In this document: in pieces, positions 13,029-41,548 of the stretch
Numbering within the stretch: position 1 is the first letter of the stretch
Layout of the letters: each line of letters starts with the position of its first letter
Origin: Candidatus Yanofskybacteria bacterium RIFCSPHIGHO2_01_FULL_43_32
GTDB lineage: Bacteria; Patescibacteriota; Minisyncoccia; 2-02-FULL-40-12; GWA2-44-9
DNA: 64,000 nt
Assembly: GCA_001794125.1 (NCBI GenBank)
Contig: MGJF01000002.1
Location: 236,514-300,513 of the forward strand
Direction: 5' to 3'
Position numbers and translations under genes: made by a program
Notes under the pieces: model-generated
Told to the model about the DNA's origin: nothing
Seen by the model: the letters and a program-made list of their open reading frames with translations, nothing else
Databases searched by the model: none

Positions 13029-13844
13029 ATGCTATCTATTATTATTTTAAGCTACAAAAACCCGGCCTTGCTAAGATTGTGCCTCTCCTCATTTGCCAGA
13101 TCGTTATCAGCCGGTTTAAATTACGAAATTGTTGTCGTAGACAACGAGACCTCTTTGGAAACACAGAGCGTGGTCTTGGATGAATTTCAGGATAAATTTA
13201 AAAATATAAAACTCATACCCCTGCAAAAAAATTGCGGGTACACTCGGGGAGTAAACGAGGGGATTAAGGCCTCCAAAGGAGAGTATGTTTTGTATTTTAA
13301 TTATGACGTGGTGGTGGAACCCGGCGCCATAGAGAAACTTTTTGATTATTTTAAGAAACATCGGGACGTAGGCTTGTTGGGTCCGAAATTAATTAATTTC
13401 AACGGAACAGAGCAGGCTTCCTGTTTCAAATTCTATTCGCCTTGGACGGTTATTTGCAGAAGGATCCCGTACCTGCCTTATGCCCAAAAAATTCTCGGCC
13501 GTTTTTTAATGAAAAATGCCGATCTTTCCAAAACACAGGAGGTAGATTGGGTTTCCGGCGCCGTATTTATTACATCAAAATCAGCCATTGAAAAAGTGGG
13601 GCTTCTCGATGAAAAATTGTACCACTATTTCAGCGACGTTGACTGGGCAAGACGTTTTTGGGAAAATGGGTATAAGGTTATTTACTTTCCTGACGCGAAA
13701 ATTTTTCACTACCACGGACAGACATCCAGAGGAAGATTGGGCATCCTGGAATTTATCTTTAACCGCGCAACCAGATGGCACGTTAAAGACGCCATTTTCT
13801 ATTTTAGCAAATATGGGCTTCGAATACCAAGGTCAGATAATTAA
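13029..13844 (+). CDS. Glycosyltransferase family 2
   Basis: MLSIIILSYKNPALLRLCLSSF...VVVDNETS. Confidence 0.75.
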   Translation: MLSIIILSYKNPALLRLCLSSFARSLSAGLNYEIVVVDNETSLETQSVVLDEFQDKFKNIKLIPLQKNCGYTRGVNEGIKASKGEYVLYFNYDVVVEPGAIEKLFDYFKKHRDVGLLGPKLINFNGTEQASCFKFYSPWTVICRRIPYLPYAQKILGRFLMKNADLSKTQEVDWVSGAVFITSKSAIEKVGLLDEKLYHYFSDVDWARRFWENGYKVIYFPDAKIFHYHGQTSRGRLGILEFIFNRATRWHVKDAIFYFSKYGLRIPRSDN

Positions 13845-14113
13845 CCCATTTTATCAATTTAGCGGAGCGGATTTTAGCCAAATCCGAGACGCGAGTCTGC
13901 AGATGTAGATGATTCTACTTCAAGGACGAGCAACAAAGGATTTGGTCTAAAATCAGCCCGCCCGCTGCGGGAAACAAGGAATAGACCGATTCCATTGTCT
14001 CTCCTCCTCAATATAGAACAATCTATATCTTCGTCGTCGTTCCTCGGACTCGGTCTATTCTTTGGCTTCTAAAATGATAAAATGGATTAAATATCTGACT
14101 CGATAAATAAAAC

Positions 14114-15355
14114 ATGACAAAAACAAAACAAATATTAATTATAAACATAATTGTTTCCCTCGCTTTAGGCTTTACGGGCGGTTTCTTGTTTAAAGATTTT
14201 GGCAGCGGAAATTCCGTGGCGGCGATTAAGCAACTGATAAACCTCGACAACGGCAAACCGGAAGATGTTGATTTTTCTCTTTTTTGGAAGGTATATAACG
14301 ACCTTGGCGCCAAATATGTTGATAAAGGGAAAGTAGACCCTCAAAAAATTCTTTACGGGGCCATAAACGGGCTGGTCAACAGCGTCGGCGACCCCTATAC
14401 TGTTTTTTTTGAGCCGGTCACAAGCAAGAAATTCCAGGAAGAAATATCCGGAAGTTTTGGCGGCGTCGGAATTGAAATAGGAAAGAGAAACAACATCCTT
14501 ACCGTCATAGCTCCCCTTAAAGATACGCCTGCTTTCAAGGCGGGAATTAAAGCGGGAGATAAGATATTAAAAATAGACGCCAAACCAACCGCAAATTTGA
14601 CAATTGAAGAAGCTGTAAACTTGATAAGGGGCAAAAGGGGGACAAAAGTTGTCTTGACCATACAAAACAGCGCCACCAAAGACATTGAACTCATCAGAGA
14701 CGCCATAAAAATACCGACCATTGACTGGGAACTGATTGACAGTCCGCCAGCCGGCGGAGGCAAAAAGATCGCTTATATGCAAATATATTCCTTTAATCAA
14801 ACAGTGGATTCGGAATTCAAAAAAGCATCGGAAGAAATACTGAAATCCAATGCCGATAGATTAATAATCGACCTGCGAAACAACCCCGGAGGATTGTTGG
14901 ATTCGGCCATAAATTTGGCCGGCTGGTTTTTAGACAAAAACCAAATTGTGGTCAGCGAGGTATTCAGAGACGGAACGAGAAATGAATTCCGGAGCGATGG
15001 CGATGCTTTATTGAAAAAATACCCCACGGTTATCTTGATGAACGGCGGTTCCGCTTCGGCATCGGAAATCTTAGCCGGCGCCTTGCATGATAACCGGGGA
15101 ATTAAAATAATAGGGGAGAAAAGCTTCGGGAAAGGCTCGGTTCAAGAACTGGAGAAATATACTGACGGTTCTTCCTTGAAAGTAACCATCGCAAAATGGC
15201 TTACTCCGGCCGGAATTTCAATCTCTGACAAAGGCATAGAAGCCGACGTTGAGATTAAGTTCAAAGAAGAAGACCTCAAAGAAGAAGGCAAAATAGAAAT
15301 CGGTACTCCGGGCAAAGACCCTCAGTTAGATAAAGCGATCGAGATTGTAAGATAG
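14114..15355 (+). CDS. ctpA: Carboxyl-terminal processing protease (S41, PDZ domain); carries in-frame PPAGGG palindromic insert
   Basis: PDZ GGVGIEIG...GIKAGDKILKIDAKP and S41 NGGSASASEILAGAL. Confidence 0.85.
   Translation: MTKTKQILIINIIVSLALGFTGGFLFKDFGSGNSVAAIKQLINLDNGKPEDVDFSLFWKVYNDLGAKYVDKGKVDPQKILYGAINGLVNSVGDPYTVFFEPVTSKKFQEEISGSFGGVGIEIGKRNNILTVIAPLKDTPAFKAGIKAGDKILKIDAKPTANLTIEEAVNLIRGKRGTKVVLTIQNSATKDIELIRDAIKIPTIDWELIDSPPAGGGKKIAYMQIYSFNQTVDSEFKKASEEILKSNADRLIIDLRNNPGGLLDSAINLAGWFLDKNQIVVSEVFRDGTRNEFRSDGDALLKKYPTVILMNGGSASASEILAGALHDNRGIKIIGEKSFGKGSVQELEKYTDGSSLKVTIAKWLTPAGISISDKGIEADVEIKFKEEDLKEEGKIEIGTPGKDPQLDKAIEIVR
14743..14758. repeat. 16-bp palindrome TCCGCCAGCCGGCGGA, copy 1 (in ctpA, encodes PPAGG)
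   Basis: exact string. Confidence 0.8.
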
Positions 15356-15843: not shown

Positions 15844-16290
15844 ATGAAAGTTATATTACTACAAAACATAAAAGGGTTCGGGCAGATAGGGGATGTGAAG
15901 AACGTGTCGGACGGCTATGCTAAAAATTTTTTATTGCCGAGAAAAATGGCCAAGGCGGCTACCGGCGGCTCTATGAAAGAAGTTGAGTCGTTGAAGGCAA
16001 AACGGATTATCATGATCGAGGCTGAAAGAAAAAACGCCCTTGAAGCCGTTGAAAAATTAAAAGATATTGTTATAGAATTCGCCCGCAAAGCAACCAAGAC
16101 GGGCAAACTATTCGCCGGAATCGGCAAGGACGACTTGGTTAAAGAAATTAAAAAGGCCTCCGGAGTCCAGCTTCAGGAAGAAATGATAGGCCACGAAGAA
16201 CCCATCAAACACATCGGCGAGCATCTCGTGGACCTGAATCTGTCTCCAGAGGTTAAAACTCAAGTCAAGGTGTTAGTAAAGGCAGAATAA
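15844..16290 (+). CDS. rplI: 50S ribosomal protein L9
   Basis: MKVILLQNIKGFGQIGDVKNVSDGYAKNFLLPRKMA. Confidence 0.85.
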   Translation: MKVILLQNIKGFGQIGDVKNVSDGYAKNFLLPRKMAKAATGGSMKEVESLKAKRIIMIEAERKNALEAVEKLKDIVIEFARKATKTGKLFAGIGKDDLVKEIKKASGVQLQEEMIGHEEPIKHIGEHLVDLNLSPEVKTQVKVLVKAE

Positions 16291-16329
16291 CCAGCTCCGC
16301 TCCCGCCAATCCCCATCCTTATCCTTATC

Positions 16330-16740
16330 GCTCCGCCACTCCCCATTCTCGACCTGTTGCCTGCGCCTTCGGTCTCCTTCGGACAAATGCTTAAATTTAT
16401 CTCAATTCAGCTATGAATTTTGTTATCCATTCCTGCTTCGCGACCAAAATTCATTCTTAGTTGAATTTTCAACAAATTTAATCATTATGTTACCCTCGGA
16501 GGCAAACGGTCTAAAATGGGGATAGGGCTTTCGCTATTAAACACAGAGCCCCCAGTCGCCAATCTCTCTGATAGCACTCCACGCAGCAATGGGGTAAACA
16601 AAATAGGGGTCAAATGAGTAAATATGCGAATTAGCAGAGCGCTCTCGCATATTTATGAAATGAGACCCCATTTTGTTCGCATTGCGGAGTTGTGATAGAG
16701 GAGAGATTGCGATGGAGGGGCGGTAGAGAGGCGGAGTGAG
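16330..16740 (+). repeat. ~410-bp structured non-coding element, family 2 copy A (conserved blocks CGACCTGTTGCCTGCGCC..GGTCTCCTTCGGACAAAT, GTTACCCTCGGAGGCAAAYGGTCTRAAATGGGG, GCGGAGWTGTGAT..GATTG)
   Basis: second copy 37027-37440 in same orientation; no ORF; internal hairpins differ in sequence but keep position. Confidence 0.6.
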
Positions 16741-16744
16741 TTAT

Positions 16745-17023
16745 TTAGTTGGCAACCACGTTGACGATTTTCACAAGTCGCTTAGAACCGTCGTATTTAG
16801 TTTTCTTTTTGGTAGTGAATTTGACTTTGCCGTTTATAACTGCGTAAATAGTATCGTCTGAACCGATGCGGACGCCATCGCCGGGAATGAATTTAGTTCC
16901 TCTTTGCCGGATTATAATATTGCCCGGTTTGGCCACTTCGCCTGCATAAAGTTTCACGCCCAAATATTTTGGTTGCGAATCTCGTCCAAGTTGTGTAGAC
17001 CCTATAGCCTTTGTATGCGCCAT
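16745..17023 (-). CDS. rpmA: 50S ribosomal protein L27
   Basis: [45 protein letters not shown]. Confidence 0.9.
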
Positions 17024-35500: not shown

Positions 35501-36457
35501 ATGACTTCAGATAAAATAAGAGTGGTCTGTTTCGGAGGAGGTACGGGATTGCCAACCCTGCTTTCGGGGATTAAAGCGAATCCTTTCTTTGAGATATCGG
35601 CCATCGTGACAATGTTTGATACCGGGGGAAGTTCGGGAAAACTTAAAGATAAATTCGGCATACTTCCTCCCGGTGATATTCTAAAATGTATTTTGGCCCT
35701 ATCAAAAAACGAACAGGCCACGCGTGAGATATTCCTGAAAAGAATTACGGATATAAATTATCCGGGCCATACCGGCGGCAATATTCTTTTGCTTGGCCTT
35801 GAAAAGGTCTACGGCAGCCTGACAACGGCTATTAACGCCCTCGGCGAAATATTATCAGCCTCCGGCAAGGTGTACCCCGTAACACTTGCCAAAAGCACTC
35901 TTTGCGCGGAATTTTCAGACGGAACAACCGTAAAAGGAGAAACCCTTATAGATGTGGGGATATTTGAGGGCAAAGCAGTAAAAAAACTTTTTCTTAATCC
36001 GAGCATTAAAGCCAACCCCAAGGCTTTATCAGCCATAAAAAAGGCGGACATATTGATAATGGGTCCCGGCAGTTTTTACACCAGCCTTCTTCCTAATTTT
36101 CTGCCTCAAGGCGTCAAGGAAGCTATAAAGGAATCCGAAGCAAAAACAATTTATGTCTGCAATCTCTTGACCGAAGGTTATGGAATGAAAAATTACAAAA
36201 TGGATACTTTCATAAAAACAGTTGAATCATATGCCGGCCGTAAAATTGACAGGGTTATAGCAAATTCTCATATTCCTTCAAAGCGTCTCGGCGAATATGC
36301 CGCAGAAAGAAAATATCCCGTCAAAATATCTGGCAAATTTCCAAAAAATAAAATTGTGGCAGCGAATCTCTGGACCGACTCTAATTTGGCCCGGCATGAC
36401 CAAAAAAAATTATCTTACCTTATAGACAGAGTTGTTTTTAGTCTTCTGAACCTCTAA
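35501..36457 (+). CDS. YvcK/CofD-like (UPF0052) gluconeogenesis-factor family protein
   Basis: RVVCFGGGTGLPTLLSGIK N-terminus. Confidence 0.75.
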   Translation: MTSDKIRVVCFGGGTGLPTLLSGIKANPFFEISAIVTMFDTGGSSGKLKDKFGILPPGDILKCILALSKNEQATREIFLKRITDINYPGHTGGNILLLGLEKVYGSLTTAINALGEILSASGKVYPVTLAKSTLCAEFSDGTTVKGETLIDVGIFEGKAVKKLFLNPSIKANPKALSAIKKADILIMGPGSFYTSLLPNFLPQGVKEAIKESEAKTIYVCNLLTEGYGMKNYKMDTFIKTVESYAGRKIDRVIANSHIPSKRLGEYAAERKYPVKISGKFPKNKIVAANLWTDSNLARHDQKKLSYLIDRVVFSLLNL

Positions 36458-36998
36458 ATTTTTTATTTCTTCTCATGAAAGAAACGACCGCGATAGGCGC
36501 CAAGAACCAATAAAATAATGCCTCGTGAGTTGAGAAATACTCGGAAACATAAGACAGATTGCCCGATATTTTTAAAACGCTCACCGGAACTATGTTTGTG
36601 GTTATTGTAATCAAAAGTCCTAATTGCATGATACTGATGATGGAAACCGATAAAAAAGATGCCTCTTTGATGGTCAGACGGCTTTTGACAAGAGAGTTGT
36701 TGAGCACGGCGAACACTAATACATAAACAAACAAGAACAATCCGACGCGCGTAATATACAACTCCGGCGATATTTTGATGAGTTCGTGCAAGCGGTCAAG
36801 GTAAGGGAATACCGACATGATTGCGTAAGCGATATAAATCCCCAAAAGAGATATCAGCGCCCGCGTCCTGCCCAAGCTCAACCCGTAAAGCAGTAAAAAT
36901 ATCAGGCCCAAAATGGCAAACAGCCCGGAAGGCCCGAAATTAAAATTAAAAAGATTGGTTATCGCAGCTAAATTAAAATTTGGAATATATTTCTCCAC
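36438..36998 (-). CDS. Polytopic membrane protein, hypothetical
   Basis: 5-6 TM segments. Confidence 0.5.
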   Translation of the reverse strand: MEKYIPNFNLAAITNLFNFNFGPSGLFAILGLIFLLLYGLSLGRTRALISLLGIYIAYAIMSVFPYLDRLHELIKISPELYITRVGLFLFVYVLVFAVLNNSLVKSRLTIKEASFLSVSIISIMQLGLLITITTNIVPVSVLKISGNLSYVSEYFSTHEALFYWFLAPIAVVSFMRRNKKFRGSED

Positions 36999-37026
36999 TG
37001 ATTAAAGTATAACACGCTTCTTCAGT

Positions 37027-37440
37027 TTCGCCTCTCCCCATTTCCGACCTGTTGCCTGCGCCTCCGGTCTCCTTCGGACAAATCATCAAATTATTCTCAA
37101 TTTGCTTAATAAATTTCAGTAACCGTTCTTTCTTCATAAGATTCAGGAATTTCCGACTAAAATTTATTGGGATTAAGCAAATTATCAAATAATTTGATGA
37201 TCGTGTTACCCTCGGAGGCAAATGGTCTGAAATGGGGGGAAGCCTGCACTTTAAGTTGACAAGTAAAATCCCAGCCATATCCCTGTCTGAATCACTCCTC
37301 GCAGCGATACGGTAACATAAAGAAGCTGACAGATAGGAAATTGAAGCTATAGTCGAAGCGATCGCTTCAATTTCCGTACATCCGTCAGCTCTTTTGTCGT
37401 ATCGCGGAGATGTGATGAAGAGAGGGATTGGCAGGGAATA
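37027..37440 (+). repeat. ~410-bp structured non-coding element, family 2 copy B
   Basis: shares three conserved blocks with 16330-16740; internal long inverted repeat ATCATCAAATTATT..ATTTGCTTAAT/ATTAAGCAAAT..AAATAATTTGATGAT and hairpin GAAATTGAAGC...GCTTCAATTTC. Confidence 0.6.
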
Positions 37441-37500
37441 AGCAAGTGGGAAAGGTTGAACATAAAGTTTAATTAAAAAAGCCGACGGTGGTCGGCAATA

Positions 37501-37839
37501 CTATTCTCTCATTTCCGGATAGAATTCGGGGCATACATGAGGCCGGCCCGTGGTGGTTCCGCATAGTTGGCAAGAAAATGTTCGTCCTTCTTTTTGGTTT
37601 TGTTCTTGCATAAATTTAACCCCTAAAACCGTAGGGACATAGCGATATCTTTCCGGAATTTGACTGACCAATTGCAGCAGGCCCATAGCGCACATTGCCC
37701 GTAATTCTATCTCCAAGTGACTTTGTTCCTTGTTGAGTTTGGCGGCAATTTCAGGAAGAGTGTGAATATTATGAGCTAATTCCAAAACCTTATCCCAACC
37801 CCTCTCCGCGGCAAATTCAAACAACTTTTCTTTCGTCAT
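37501..37839 (-). CDS. Small hypothetical protein, winged-helix-like core plus C-terminal zinc ribbon (CQLCG...CPEF)
   Basis: palindrome CTGATAAtttTTATCAG in its upstream region. Confidence 0.45.
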   Translation of the reverse strand: MTKEKLFEFAAERGWDKVLELAHNIHTLPEIAAKLNKEQSHLEIELRAMCAMGLLQLVSQIPERYRYVPTVLGVKFMQEQNQKEGRTFSCQLCGTTTGRPHVCPEFYPEMRE

Positions 37840-39440: not shown

Positions 39441-39542
39441 CTTGACCCCTCACCTTTTGAGCAATTGTGATTATATCACAATTTTGCAGATTTTTGCTCG
39501 AAAGGTGAGGGGTTGACAAAATGATTCAATATATGATATAAT
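39441..39542. promoter_or_regulatory. Divergent promoter/operator region: 21-bp inverted repeat CTTGACCCCTCACCTTTTGAGC / GCTCGAAAGGTGAGGGGTTGACAA, inner palindrome AATTGTGATtataTCACAATT, and plus-strand TTGACA(39513)-18-TATAAT(39537)
   Basis: read directly. Confidence 0.55.
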
Positions 39543-39547
39543 TAAAA

Positions 39548-39996
39548 CATAGTTACGTAATCGCCGTTTTAGAGGCCCGGCGGCTTGTAGAATAGAGCCT
39601 CAAAGTTCTTCGAAATTCGGGGGGGTGCACGACACGCGACCCGATAGAGGGTTGGCGCGCAGTTCTCTCCCGATACCTGGCCAGAAGGAAAAGATCGGCA
39701 GCGACGAGTGATGCGCAGATGGCGCATCTGTTGTCATGGGCTGTCGACAAGAACCCCTTCTGCGAAAGGCCGGATCAGACGCACCAGGGCGTCCCGGCGT
39801 TATTCGTCTTTTCGGCGGATAAGAACCTGCCTTGTGCATTCACAGGTAGGAATGCATCGTAAAGCGGTAGAGGCCTCAAGCCCAATTCCGCAGCTGGGTA
39901 CGTCAACCCCAGCACGCGTCTTCCTTTTGCGGAGTGGTCTCCTAACCGTGCTTTAGCCGGTTAAGGAACTCTGTCGGGAAGGCGTTTTTTGTTTTT
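39548..39996 (+). ncRNA. Candidate abundant structured ncRNA (GC-rich, ORF-free); possibly RNase P RNA (P4-like GAAAGGCCGG...AGGGC and AGCCGGUUAAGG) but unconfirmed
   Basis: consensus promoter immediately upstream, GC ~58 % vs AT-rich genome, many local hairpins, ends in T-run 39985-39996; followed by 19-bp stem hairpin 39997-40059. Confidence 0.45.
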
Positions 39997-40060
39997 CCCC
40001 GCCGTTGAAAAGAAATGGTTTGCAACAATGCCAAAGGCAGTTTCTTTTCAACGGCGGGGT

Positions 40061-41364: not shown

Positions 41365-41384
41365 TTATTAAGTATTTTTAGAGC

Positions 41385-41515
41385 CCCCAGCCACATACCC
41401 ACAGGGAGAACTTGCGCAAACGTTTCGGCTTGGTTCTTCGAAACGTTGAGCATGTAGATAGCGCCGAGCCGCTGGAGCGAGGCGACTATCGGTCGAGTCG
41501 GGGGTATGTGGCTGG
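41385..41515. repeat. Large palindromic structure (CCAGCCACATACCC ... GGGTATGTGGCTGG) enclosing an inverted copy of the family-1 hairpin (CGTTTCG gcttggttctt CGAAACG)
   Basis: read directly; lies between dnaK stop and ASCH gene start. Confidence 0.5.
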
Positions 41516-41548
41516 GAGCGATTCTGAAAAATGAATGAGATAGAGCGA

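Follow-up and report, generated by a model that had tools for sequence, protein, structure and literature searches.

Head-to-head stem-closed cassettes without open reading frames appear to form an interspersed, possibly mobile, intergenic superfamily in Candidatus Yanofskybacteria and close Patescibacteria relatives

What fills the space between the genes rplI (15844-16290, plus strand, stop codon 16288-16290) and rpmA (16745-17023, minus strand, stop codon 16745-16747) in a Candidatus Yanofskybacteria genome, and what kind of element would recur in the same DNA with its hairpins kept in place and their sequences changed? The DNA analyzed here is one stretch of 64 kb, referred to throughout as the window. 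An earlier note on it had described two homologous copies of about 410 bp and had proposed that each is a single element, either a large structured non-coding RNA or a non-autonomous MITE. The two copies, called A and B here, were found where the note had placed them and are clearly homologous, at about 420 bp each, with an alignment of about 450 nt, a mean column identity of 77% and nhmmer E-values of 1e-140 or lower. Copy B occupies positions ~37027-37455 between two minus-strand genes (36438-36998 and 37501-37839), and sensitive blastn and nhmmer searches of the 64-kb window gave no third full copy. The same searches brought out two long imperfect palindromes in each copy, and folding of either strand of both copies gave an outer stem around two long hairpins, with z-scores of -7.8 to -10.4 (dinucleotide shuffles, 0/100 as good). 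The first hairpin is called HP1 and the second HP2, and the features of the two copies and of a related module are as follows.

16291..16744, no strand assigned: copy A, whole composite, spanning the entire rplI/rpmA intergenic region
16295..16327, no strand assigned: C-rich leader of copy A, CTCCGCTCCCGCCAATCCCCATCC..., read from the sequences
16328..16535, minus strand: copy A's HP1 cassette, an irregular long hairpin that includes a three-way junction; minus is the better-folding strand and the one supported by covariation
16350..16388, minus strand: the 5' block of the earlier note, 3' side of the junction on the minus strand, UUUGUCCGAAGGAGACCGAAGGCGCAGGCAACAGGUCG
16488..16522, minus strand: the central block of the earlier note, 5' side of the junction on the minus strand (CCCCAUUUUAGACCGUUUGCCUCCGAGGGUAAC), pairing with 16350-16388
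16547..16721, plus strand: copy A's HP2 cassette, a long hairpin whose base is close to a tandem G.A motif (CUGA / GA); the plus strand folds better
16630..16644, plus strand: conserved apical loop of HP2 in copy A, consensus UAGCGAAGCGCUC, in copy A ATTAGCAGAGCGCTC
16722..16744, no strand assigned: tail 3' of HP2 in copy A, GGTAGAGAGGCGGAGTGAG...
37027..37251, minus strand: HP1 cassette of copy B, of another subfamily than the HP1 of copy A (~72% identity)
37265..37443, plus strand: HP2 cassette of copy B, apical loop 37348-37363, TATAGTCGAAGCGATC
37444..37460, no strand assigned: copy B's short tail, in part complementary to 37015-37035
37481..37496, minus strand: intrinsic terminator of gene 37501-37839, the upstream neighbor of copy B
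41380..41525, plus strand: solitary related cassette of 145 nt, stem-closed, z -5.2, between two minus-strand genes

The three conserved blocks that had been recognized are all present, and the observation that the 5' and central blocks are inverted versions of each other holds, the two being the two strands of one helix region. The stretch at 16350..16388 includes a small CCGAAGG-AGA-CCGAAGG branch and is nearly invariant across 36-38 HP1 copies. The stems under the HP2 apical loop are completely different between copies. The outer stem results from complementarity between the tail at 16722..16744 and the outer end of HP1 (16328-16345). The leader at 16295..16327 is itself a short repeat; L003 also has it upstream of HP1, and L009 has it in inverted form downstream of a module (L-numbers denote fetched loci). 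Copy B is placed between the terminator at 37481..37496 and the -10 box (TATACT, 37006-37011, minus strand) of the membrane-protein gene 36438-36998. The solitary module at 41380-41525 has termini of the same kind as those of HP2 cassettes (AGAGCCCCCAGCC ... GGCTGGGAGCGA), and its interior is related to that of the module following HP1 in L017, with which it has in common a GGCUUGGUUCU loop and a GCCGCUGGAG motif.

The membrane-protein gene beside copy B has a conserved extended -10 box (TGnTATACT/TATAAT; window 37000-37015, minus strand), with equivalents in L005, L029 and L059-L063. This box lies only ~7-12 nt 5' of the GTG start, the cassettes end exactly at the promoter, and the spacing suggests that the mRNA of this gene may be leaderless or nearly so.

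The earlier note had envisaged further copies elsewhere, and relatives of HP1 were found in 52 fetched loci, 12 from genomes and 40 from metagenomes. The genome loci came from an exact-pattern scan of species-representative genomes with the 5' block, and all 12 belong to MAGs of Patescibacteria, several of them labelled Yanofskybacteria; the 40 further loci came from a scan of metagenomes with the central block and are mostly from groundwater. A search with nhmmer and a profile of the first hairpin then delimited ~40 distinct full-length HP1 copies with a clear orientation. The hosts of the superfamily are Candidatus Yanofskybacteria and close Patescibacteria relatives, whose genomes hold several HP1 copies each (five in genome JACPAB01) at a low density of roughly one per 50-150 kb. 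The nearest relative of an HP1 copy is usually found at a non-orthologous locus of another genome; copy A, for example, is 92% identical to the copy in L013 and only 72% identical to copy B. Among the copies compared there were no near-identical HP1 copies inside one genome, and therefore no sign of recent transposition. The window matches contig MGJS01000003.1 of Candidatus Yanofskybacteria without a difference, and copy A showed zero differences and a single orientation in six independent public contigs, so that strain-level polymorphism at this site, which we had considered, was set aside. Truncated cassette fragments occur in L009 and nested insertions in L029.

Several HP1 copies carry short palindromic inserts, namely those of L029 (686-987), L022, L025 and L027, for example CCTGCCTGCCGGCAGGCAGG in the apex, and another insert of ~45-50 nt interrupts the conserved CCTTCGG repeat; with palindromes inserted within HP1 in this way, nested insertion does occur.

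The structure of HP1 (~210 nt) is a three-way junction with an invariant core. In the minus orientation of the window, the consensus fold of 36-38 distinct sequences has 68 pairs, with 97.0% of cells paired, and 26 of the 68 pairs show double compensatory changes, as compared with 14±1.6 in column shuffles (0/500) and at most 10 pairs in slid controls. The consensus read the other way round comprises only 56 pairs, of which 15 are compensatory, and has an energy of -47.9 kcal/mol vs -65.8 kcal/mol on the minus strand. Copy by copy, the minus strand is the more stable in 36/38, by ~12 kcal/mol, and in 35/38 when the sequences are trimmed. The supported pairs, in the minus-strand reading, include 106 G.U cells and 28 A.C cells, which means that the half-way states of the compensatory changes in HP1 are wobbles on the minus strand. 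On this strand the fold begins with a basal C/G-rich helix, often lengthened by tandem G.A pairs (5'-GCGAA/UGAGC-3'), and it is because these pairs extend the helix that the plus strand has the look of direct repeats (TCGCT...TCGCT). The junction itself is formed by the 5' and central blocks, with the small CCGAAGG-AGA-CCGAAGG branch and a long arm whose variable tip covaries. For HP2 (~175 nt), 15 of 39 pairs are compensatory in 10 copies, with 44 double-change cells vs 19.6±3.2 in shuffles, and the plus strand is the more stable in 8/10 copies (-72.6 vs -63.8 kcal/mol), a strand call that is based on 10 copies only. The hairpins at matching positions with different sequences that had been noticed in copies A and B are thus accounted for by compensatory change in both modules, and the selection on structure that they had suggested is upheld by covariation well above the shuffled and slid controls.

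The two halves of each copy are separable. HP1 is the sole module common to all loci and occurs either alone or beside at least five different partner modules. It may be followed by HP2, by a domain of ~200 nt called 'type 2', by one called 'cluster 2' or by other pieces with structure, and in some loci by no more than a short hairpin of the terminator-like kind. HP2 is therefore one of several alternative partners, the HP1+HP2 combination being present in ~10 distinct loci, and modules of the HP2 type and of cluster 2 are also found without HP1. The cassettes are hairpins of 150-230 nt closed by a C/G-rich helix, often with tandem G.A pairs, and single cassettes, with no second end of the terminal-repeat type, are common. 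On the better-folding strand their termini read 5'-AAGC(G)..CCC ... GGG..(G)AGCGA-3', and these AAGC/AGCGA termini are found in HP1, HP2, type 2, the 41380 module and the unrelated modules of L059, L060 and L066. HP1 has minus polarity and its partners plus polarity, with the 5' ends ~10-15 nt apart; the same head-to-head layout is seen for HP2 and cluster 2 in L061 and also at L009:1380-1640. With HP1 on the minus strand and HP2 on the plus strand, the 5' ends abut and the outward tails form an apparent terminal inverted repeat, which is what the complementary ends described in the earlier note turn out to be. The picture of one 410-nt element must accordingly be given up, each copy consisting of two independent modules, and with it that of a single large non-coding RNA, since HP1 stands alone or with at least five partners, HP2 exists without HP1 and the halves fold best on opposite strands.

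The better-folding strands carry purine-rich GA motifs and C-GAA-G triloop motifs, CCGAAGG occurring twice in HP1 and GCGAAGC at the apex of HP2. C-GAA-G triloops are hyperstable in DNA. The complements of the GAA motifs read UUCG-like, most of them without a supporting stem. The UUCG loops reported earlier lie on the worse-folding strand of HP1 and read CCGAAGG on the better one. As judged from these motifs, the presence of GAA triloops on the better strands and of UUCG-like sequence on the other hints at a single-stranded DNA form.

The plus orientation of HP1 is co-directional with the upstream gene in 27/40 copies, in 20 of them within ~10 nt of the stop codon, and a terminator-like plus-strand hairpin often lies 3' of HP1. 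From this mostly co-directional placement after stop codons it follows that the HP1 strand which is surely transcribed is the worse-folding one. Scans for promoters and terminators gave no signal for transcription of the better-folding strand: consensus matches were at chance level, none was conserved so as to bracket the better strand, and neither strand of HP1 or HP2 has a terminator-like site (G+C-rich hairpin and U-tract) at its ends, while separate small terminators adjoin many copies. An internal GTAACA-17-GATAAT match is present on the HP1 minus strand; an RNA starting from it would be without the 5' arm. Replication-strand bias was also considered and is uninformative, as GC skew tracks gene orientation and the two copies are in regions of opposite skew.

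Comparison of orthologous sites provided the evidence on how the cassettes behave as DNA. The genomes compared around copy A are close (LepA 93-95% identical). In L017 only a 28-nt bidirectional terminator lies between rplI and rpmA, and HP1 with another module is found upstream of rplI instead. L034 and L045 have HP1+HP2 in the interval from a 127-aa gene to lepA, which in the window is a spacer of 52 nt. The copy B site, bounded on one side by the terminator of a 112-aa gene and on the other by the -10 box of the gene for the membrane protein, is empty in JACPAB01, where the terminator is followed directly by GATATACT, and three relatives that are more distant likewise have nothing there. 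Different modules occupy the site in L059, L060, L061 and L066; the window, L005 and L029 have HP1 there, with partners that differ. Empty sites in relatives, another expectation of the earlier note, thus exist both for copy A (L017) and for copy B (JACPAB01 and three others). In L016 and L022, whose flanks are collinear (72-80% identity), the ~410-bp HP1+HP2 unit is inverted just upstream of the same gene. Neither a duplicated target site nor a clean scar of insertion was detected in the comparisons of the window with L017, L034 with the window, L059 with L063, and L016 with L022. The cassettes behave as discrete DNA units that are acquired and lost, swapped and inverted at permissive sites between genes, which adjoin stop codons or lie between a terminator and the next promoter.

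Other DNA has entered the neighborhood of the copy B site as well. An rve-family (IS3/IS481-type) transposase gene lies between the membrane-protein gene and efp in L061 (2120-2965), so that conventional insertion sequences visit this neighborhood too, and in L066 (1415-1500) a palindromic insert of ~75 nt (TCCCGAACGAAGTCTCGCTCGCGACAAAGTCGCGAGTCCGG...) separates the conserved GTGGA from the conserved GAGAAAT where the membrane-protein gene begins.

No gene that might explain the cassettes is linked to them. All-against-all blastp of the proteins within 3 kb of ~40 copies gave only syntenic housekeeping genes and no recurrent protein, the neighbors being rplI, rpmA, lepA and the genes for PNPase, DnaJ, EF-P and similar proteins. 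The fetched flanks of ~40 copies showed no RAYT (Y1 HUH transposase), recombinase, integrase or reverse transcriptase, and the 66 fetched loci no parent insertion sequence with the same ends. The cassettes themselves do not encode protein, in agreement with the earlier description of the copies as free of open reading frames: a frame anchored on the conserved core is open in at most 2/35 HP1 copies, and a 10-aa mini-ORF with a Shine-Dalgarno sequence and AUG on the HP1 minus strand, examined as a hidden protein, is missing from the copy B subfamily. Membership in a known Rfam family did not hold up either. Scans of the window and 12 loci against Rfam 15 at the gathering threshold gave tRNAs only, and permissive scans of copy A and the type-2 module (E<=10) gave chance-level microRNA and lncRNA matches only. 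Pattern scans of viral contigs and a distant blastn against 50,697 phage records gave no match that would indicate a phage or virus origin, and full-text searches of the literature gave no published description of these elements.

We put at slightly better than an even chance the explanation that the copies are mosaics of two ORF-less, stem-closed cassettes set head to head, and that these cassettes belong to an undescribed interspersed intergenic superfamily moved by a trans-acting protein. The family, its structure and strand asymmetry, its modularity, its shared termini and its gain, loss and inversion at orthologous sites were observed directly in the loci compared; an enzyme that acts in trans on the folded single strand, and mobility through such an enzyme, are what we infer. 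Pairing is kept by compensatory substitutions on one defined strand. The mechanism could be the following: a trans-acting protein would recognize the folded single strand, as DNA or as RNA, bind the conserved termini and the junction core, and move or copy the cassette, perhaps in the manner in which REP/REPIN elements are mobilized by the RAYT transposase. Cassettes in place would at least sometimes be transcribed within 3' UTRs and may secondarily serve as RNA-end hairpins. A bolder form of this proposal, which we advance tentatively as possible but doubtful, is that the cassettes are ORF-less elements of a new class, whose defining feature is a folded single strand of 150-230 nt, hairpin or three-way junction, with conserved AAGC...AGCGA termini, which an enzyme in ultra-small CPR genomes would recognize and copy or move; the HP1 core would then be the protein-binding or catalytic centre, and head-to-head pairing would ensure one well-folded hairpin per strand. 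Several observations sit poorly with the mobile cassettes that we favor. The fetched flanks yielded no mobilizing enzyme and no recurrent protein, the sites compared showed neither a target-site duplication nor a clean scar, near-identical copies were absent from within genomes, and copy number is low; the strand call for HP2, moreover, comes from only 10 copies. The preferred model leaves unexplained that the surely transcribed HP1 strand is the worse-folding one. In addition, three genomes have kept HP1 upstream of the same membrane-protein gene, with an identity of only 52-74% between the proteins, and such long retention together with an invariant 40-nt core is the pattern that a host-beneficial RNA would show.

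That the cassettes are structured RNAs with a function for the host, either cis-acting 3'-UTR/intergenic elements or small RNA genes, is the strongest competing explanation and a serious one, which we regard as rather unlikely. In this case HP1 would serve as a conserved scaffold or as a domain for protein binding, and specificity would come from the variable partners; possible roles are to protect the 3' ends of mRNA, to terminate transcription or to insulate genes that lie close together. The strong covariation, the invariant junction core and the conserved apical loops are all consistent with it, as are the purine-rich GA motifs on the better-folding strands, the position of HP1 within ~10 nt of the stop of a co-directional gene in 20 copies, often with a terminator-like plus-strand hairpin after it, and the presence of copy A in place of the bidirectional terminator of L017. 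The age of the within-genome paralogues, each with closer relatives in other genomes, also speaks for it. However, the selected strand of HP1 is in most copies antisense to the gene that it follows, no conserved promoter or terminator surrounds the cassettes on the better strand, and the opposite strand preferences of HP1 and HP2 mean that no single transcript is optimal for both. The inversion of the whole unit at an orthologous locus without loss, the site that is empty or occupied by unrelated modules in close relatives, and the existence of truncated and nested fragments are likewise difficult to reconcile with a host RNA.

The remaining explanations invoke known kinds of mobile or invertible DNA. 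A classical non-autonomous MITE, derived from an insertion sequence with a DDE transposase and moved as double-stranded DNA by cut-and-paste through terminal inverted repeats, had been one of the two original proposals and now appears improbable. The composite ends are indeed imperfect inverted repeats, the units are multi-copy and intergenic with presence/absence polymorphism, and an rve-family transposase gene lies near the hot-spot locus L061; but the supposed terminal repeats are cassette tails, filled and empty sites show no target-site duplication, the 66 loci contain no transposase-bearing parent with the same ends, no protein recurs beside the copies, many cassettes are single and lack a second such repeat, and the strong strand-specific selection on the interior structure would be needless for a DDE MITE. 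An inverton, that is, a segment bounded by inverted repeats and flipped by a site-specific recombinase so as to alter the expression of a neighboring gene, would fit the ~410-bp unit with its inverted repeats, the two orientations that it has in two species at the orthologous locus of L016 and L022, a short distance 5' of the same gene, and the position of copy B immediately upstream of a promoter. We consider it still less probable, as copy A has one orientation and zero differences in the six contigs from the species of the window, the flanks contain no linked recombinase gene, no outward promoter is conserved, hairpin covariation is not required, and many copies lie between convergent genes where there is nothing to control. 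Least probable of all is a retron-like or other template RNA for reverse transcriptase, in which inverted repeats would close two domains, one acting as RNA and the other as its single-stranded DNA copy. An outer stem with two hairpin domains, and an opposite strand preference of these domains such as is expected if one is cDNA, recall this arrangement; nevertheless HP1 occurs alone, none of ~40 copies has a reverse transcriptase gene beside it, and the order is wrong: whichever strand is read, it is the first domain that prefers the opposite strand and the second that prefers the strand being read, contrary to the order in msr-msd. The retron analogy was rejected on this domain order and the absence of a reverse transcriptase from the flanks.

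The mobile cassettes of our preferred explanation were also compared, against general background, with known repeats and RNAs, PMC3116915 being one source for REP/BIME/REPIN. The REP/BIME/REPIN elements of proteobacteria, mobilized by RAYT (a Y1 HUH transposase), are similar in being multi-copy extragenic palindromic units without an open reading frame, often at gene ends or between convergent genes, with strand-specific hairpins, inverted doublets, mosaics of different motifs, conserved 'heads', and variable stems and loops. They differ in that the cassettes here are 150-230 nt with a three-way junction (REP 20-40 nt), number a handful per genome (hundreds for REP), pair members of different families in their doublets, and belong to families that cross genera with old paralogues; moreover, no RAYT was seen in the fetched flanks of cassettes. 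The BOX elements of Streptococcus pneumoniae (boxA-boxB(n)-boxC) and those of the ERIC/IRU, Correia and bcr1 types resemble the cassettes in their interchangeable sub-units, stable predicted structure, intergenic location, co-transcription with neighbors and a mobilization mechanism that is not established. BOX modules are 45-60 bp long and always in A-B-C order on one strand, whereas the modules here are independent stem-closed hairpins, head to head on opposite strands, with far more covariation. Integron attC sites, which are recognized on one folded single strand and have a length of 57-141 nt, likewise have imperfect hairpins with structure placed over sequence, conserved ends, a variable middle and a cassette arrangement. 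The cassettes differ from them in their greater length (150-230 nt), in having no RYYYAAC/GTTRRRY core sites, their termini being AAGC..CCC / GGG..AGCGA, in the absence of an integrase or attI from the flanks, and in containing no open reading frame. The large Rfam non-coding RNAs (OLE, GOLLD, ROOL, HEARO/omega RNA, raiA and 6S) are of a similar size range, intergenic and ORF-free with strong covariation, but the cassettes match no covariance model even at E<=10, have no promoter/terminator pair that would define a gene, and are multi-copy, modular and polymorphic in position and orientation. The conceptually closest analogy is that with REP/BIME/REPIN and BOX, the units here being five to ten times larger, low in copy number and of several families with common termini.

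Genomes of Patescibacteria are ~1 Mb in size, and the usual description is that they contain very little DNA that is non-coding or repetitive. It is unexpected that such a streamlined lineage still keeps several structured non-coding units of 150-450 bp per genome, with covariation in the cassettes as strong as that in established RNA families. If the cassettes are mobile, they extend hairpin-based, strand-specific mobile DNA (REP/REPIN, the ends of IS200/IS605, attC) to much larger units and to the CPR, and they point to a new mobilizing enzyme; if they are functional RNAs, they are a new multi-member RNA family with a common scaffold. In either case the alignments are ready for Rfam-type models and should allow better annotation of CPR intergenic regions.

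The same 64-kb window has no fewer than three other structured regions that lack annotation. Positions 39548-39996 (plus strand) are a G+C-rich non-coding stretch of ~450 nt with a z-score of -5.1, bracketed by a near-consensus promoter (TTGACA-17-TATAAT, 39514-39543) and a terminator-like GGGAAGGCGTTTTTTG; a scan of 39500-40020 gave no relevant Rfam match even at E<=1, and the stretch is a candidate large non-coding RNA, possibly a divergent housekeeping RNA. Positions 13832-14099 are a 270-nt intergenic region with a 31-nt closing inverted repeat (90% complementary) and inner hairpins, located upstream of the S41 peptidase gene 14114-15355 and with no sequence relation to HP1 or HP2. A small repeated palindrome, AACGGCTCAC(n)GTGAGCCGTT, lies at 325-368 of the window, where its 21-nt arms are perfect, and beside HP1 in L006, L009, L013, L024 and L029, and its recurrence beside HP1 in several genomes marks it as a REP-like or terminator-like repeat family.
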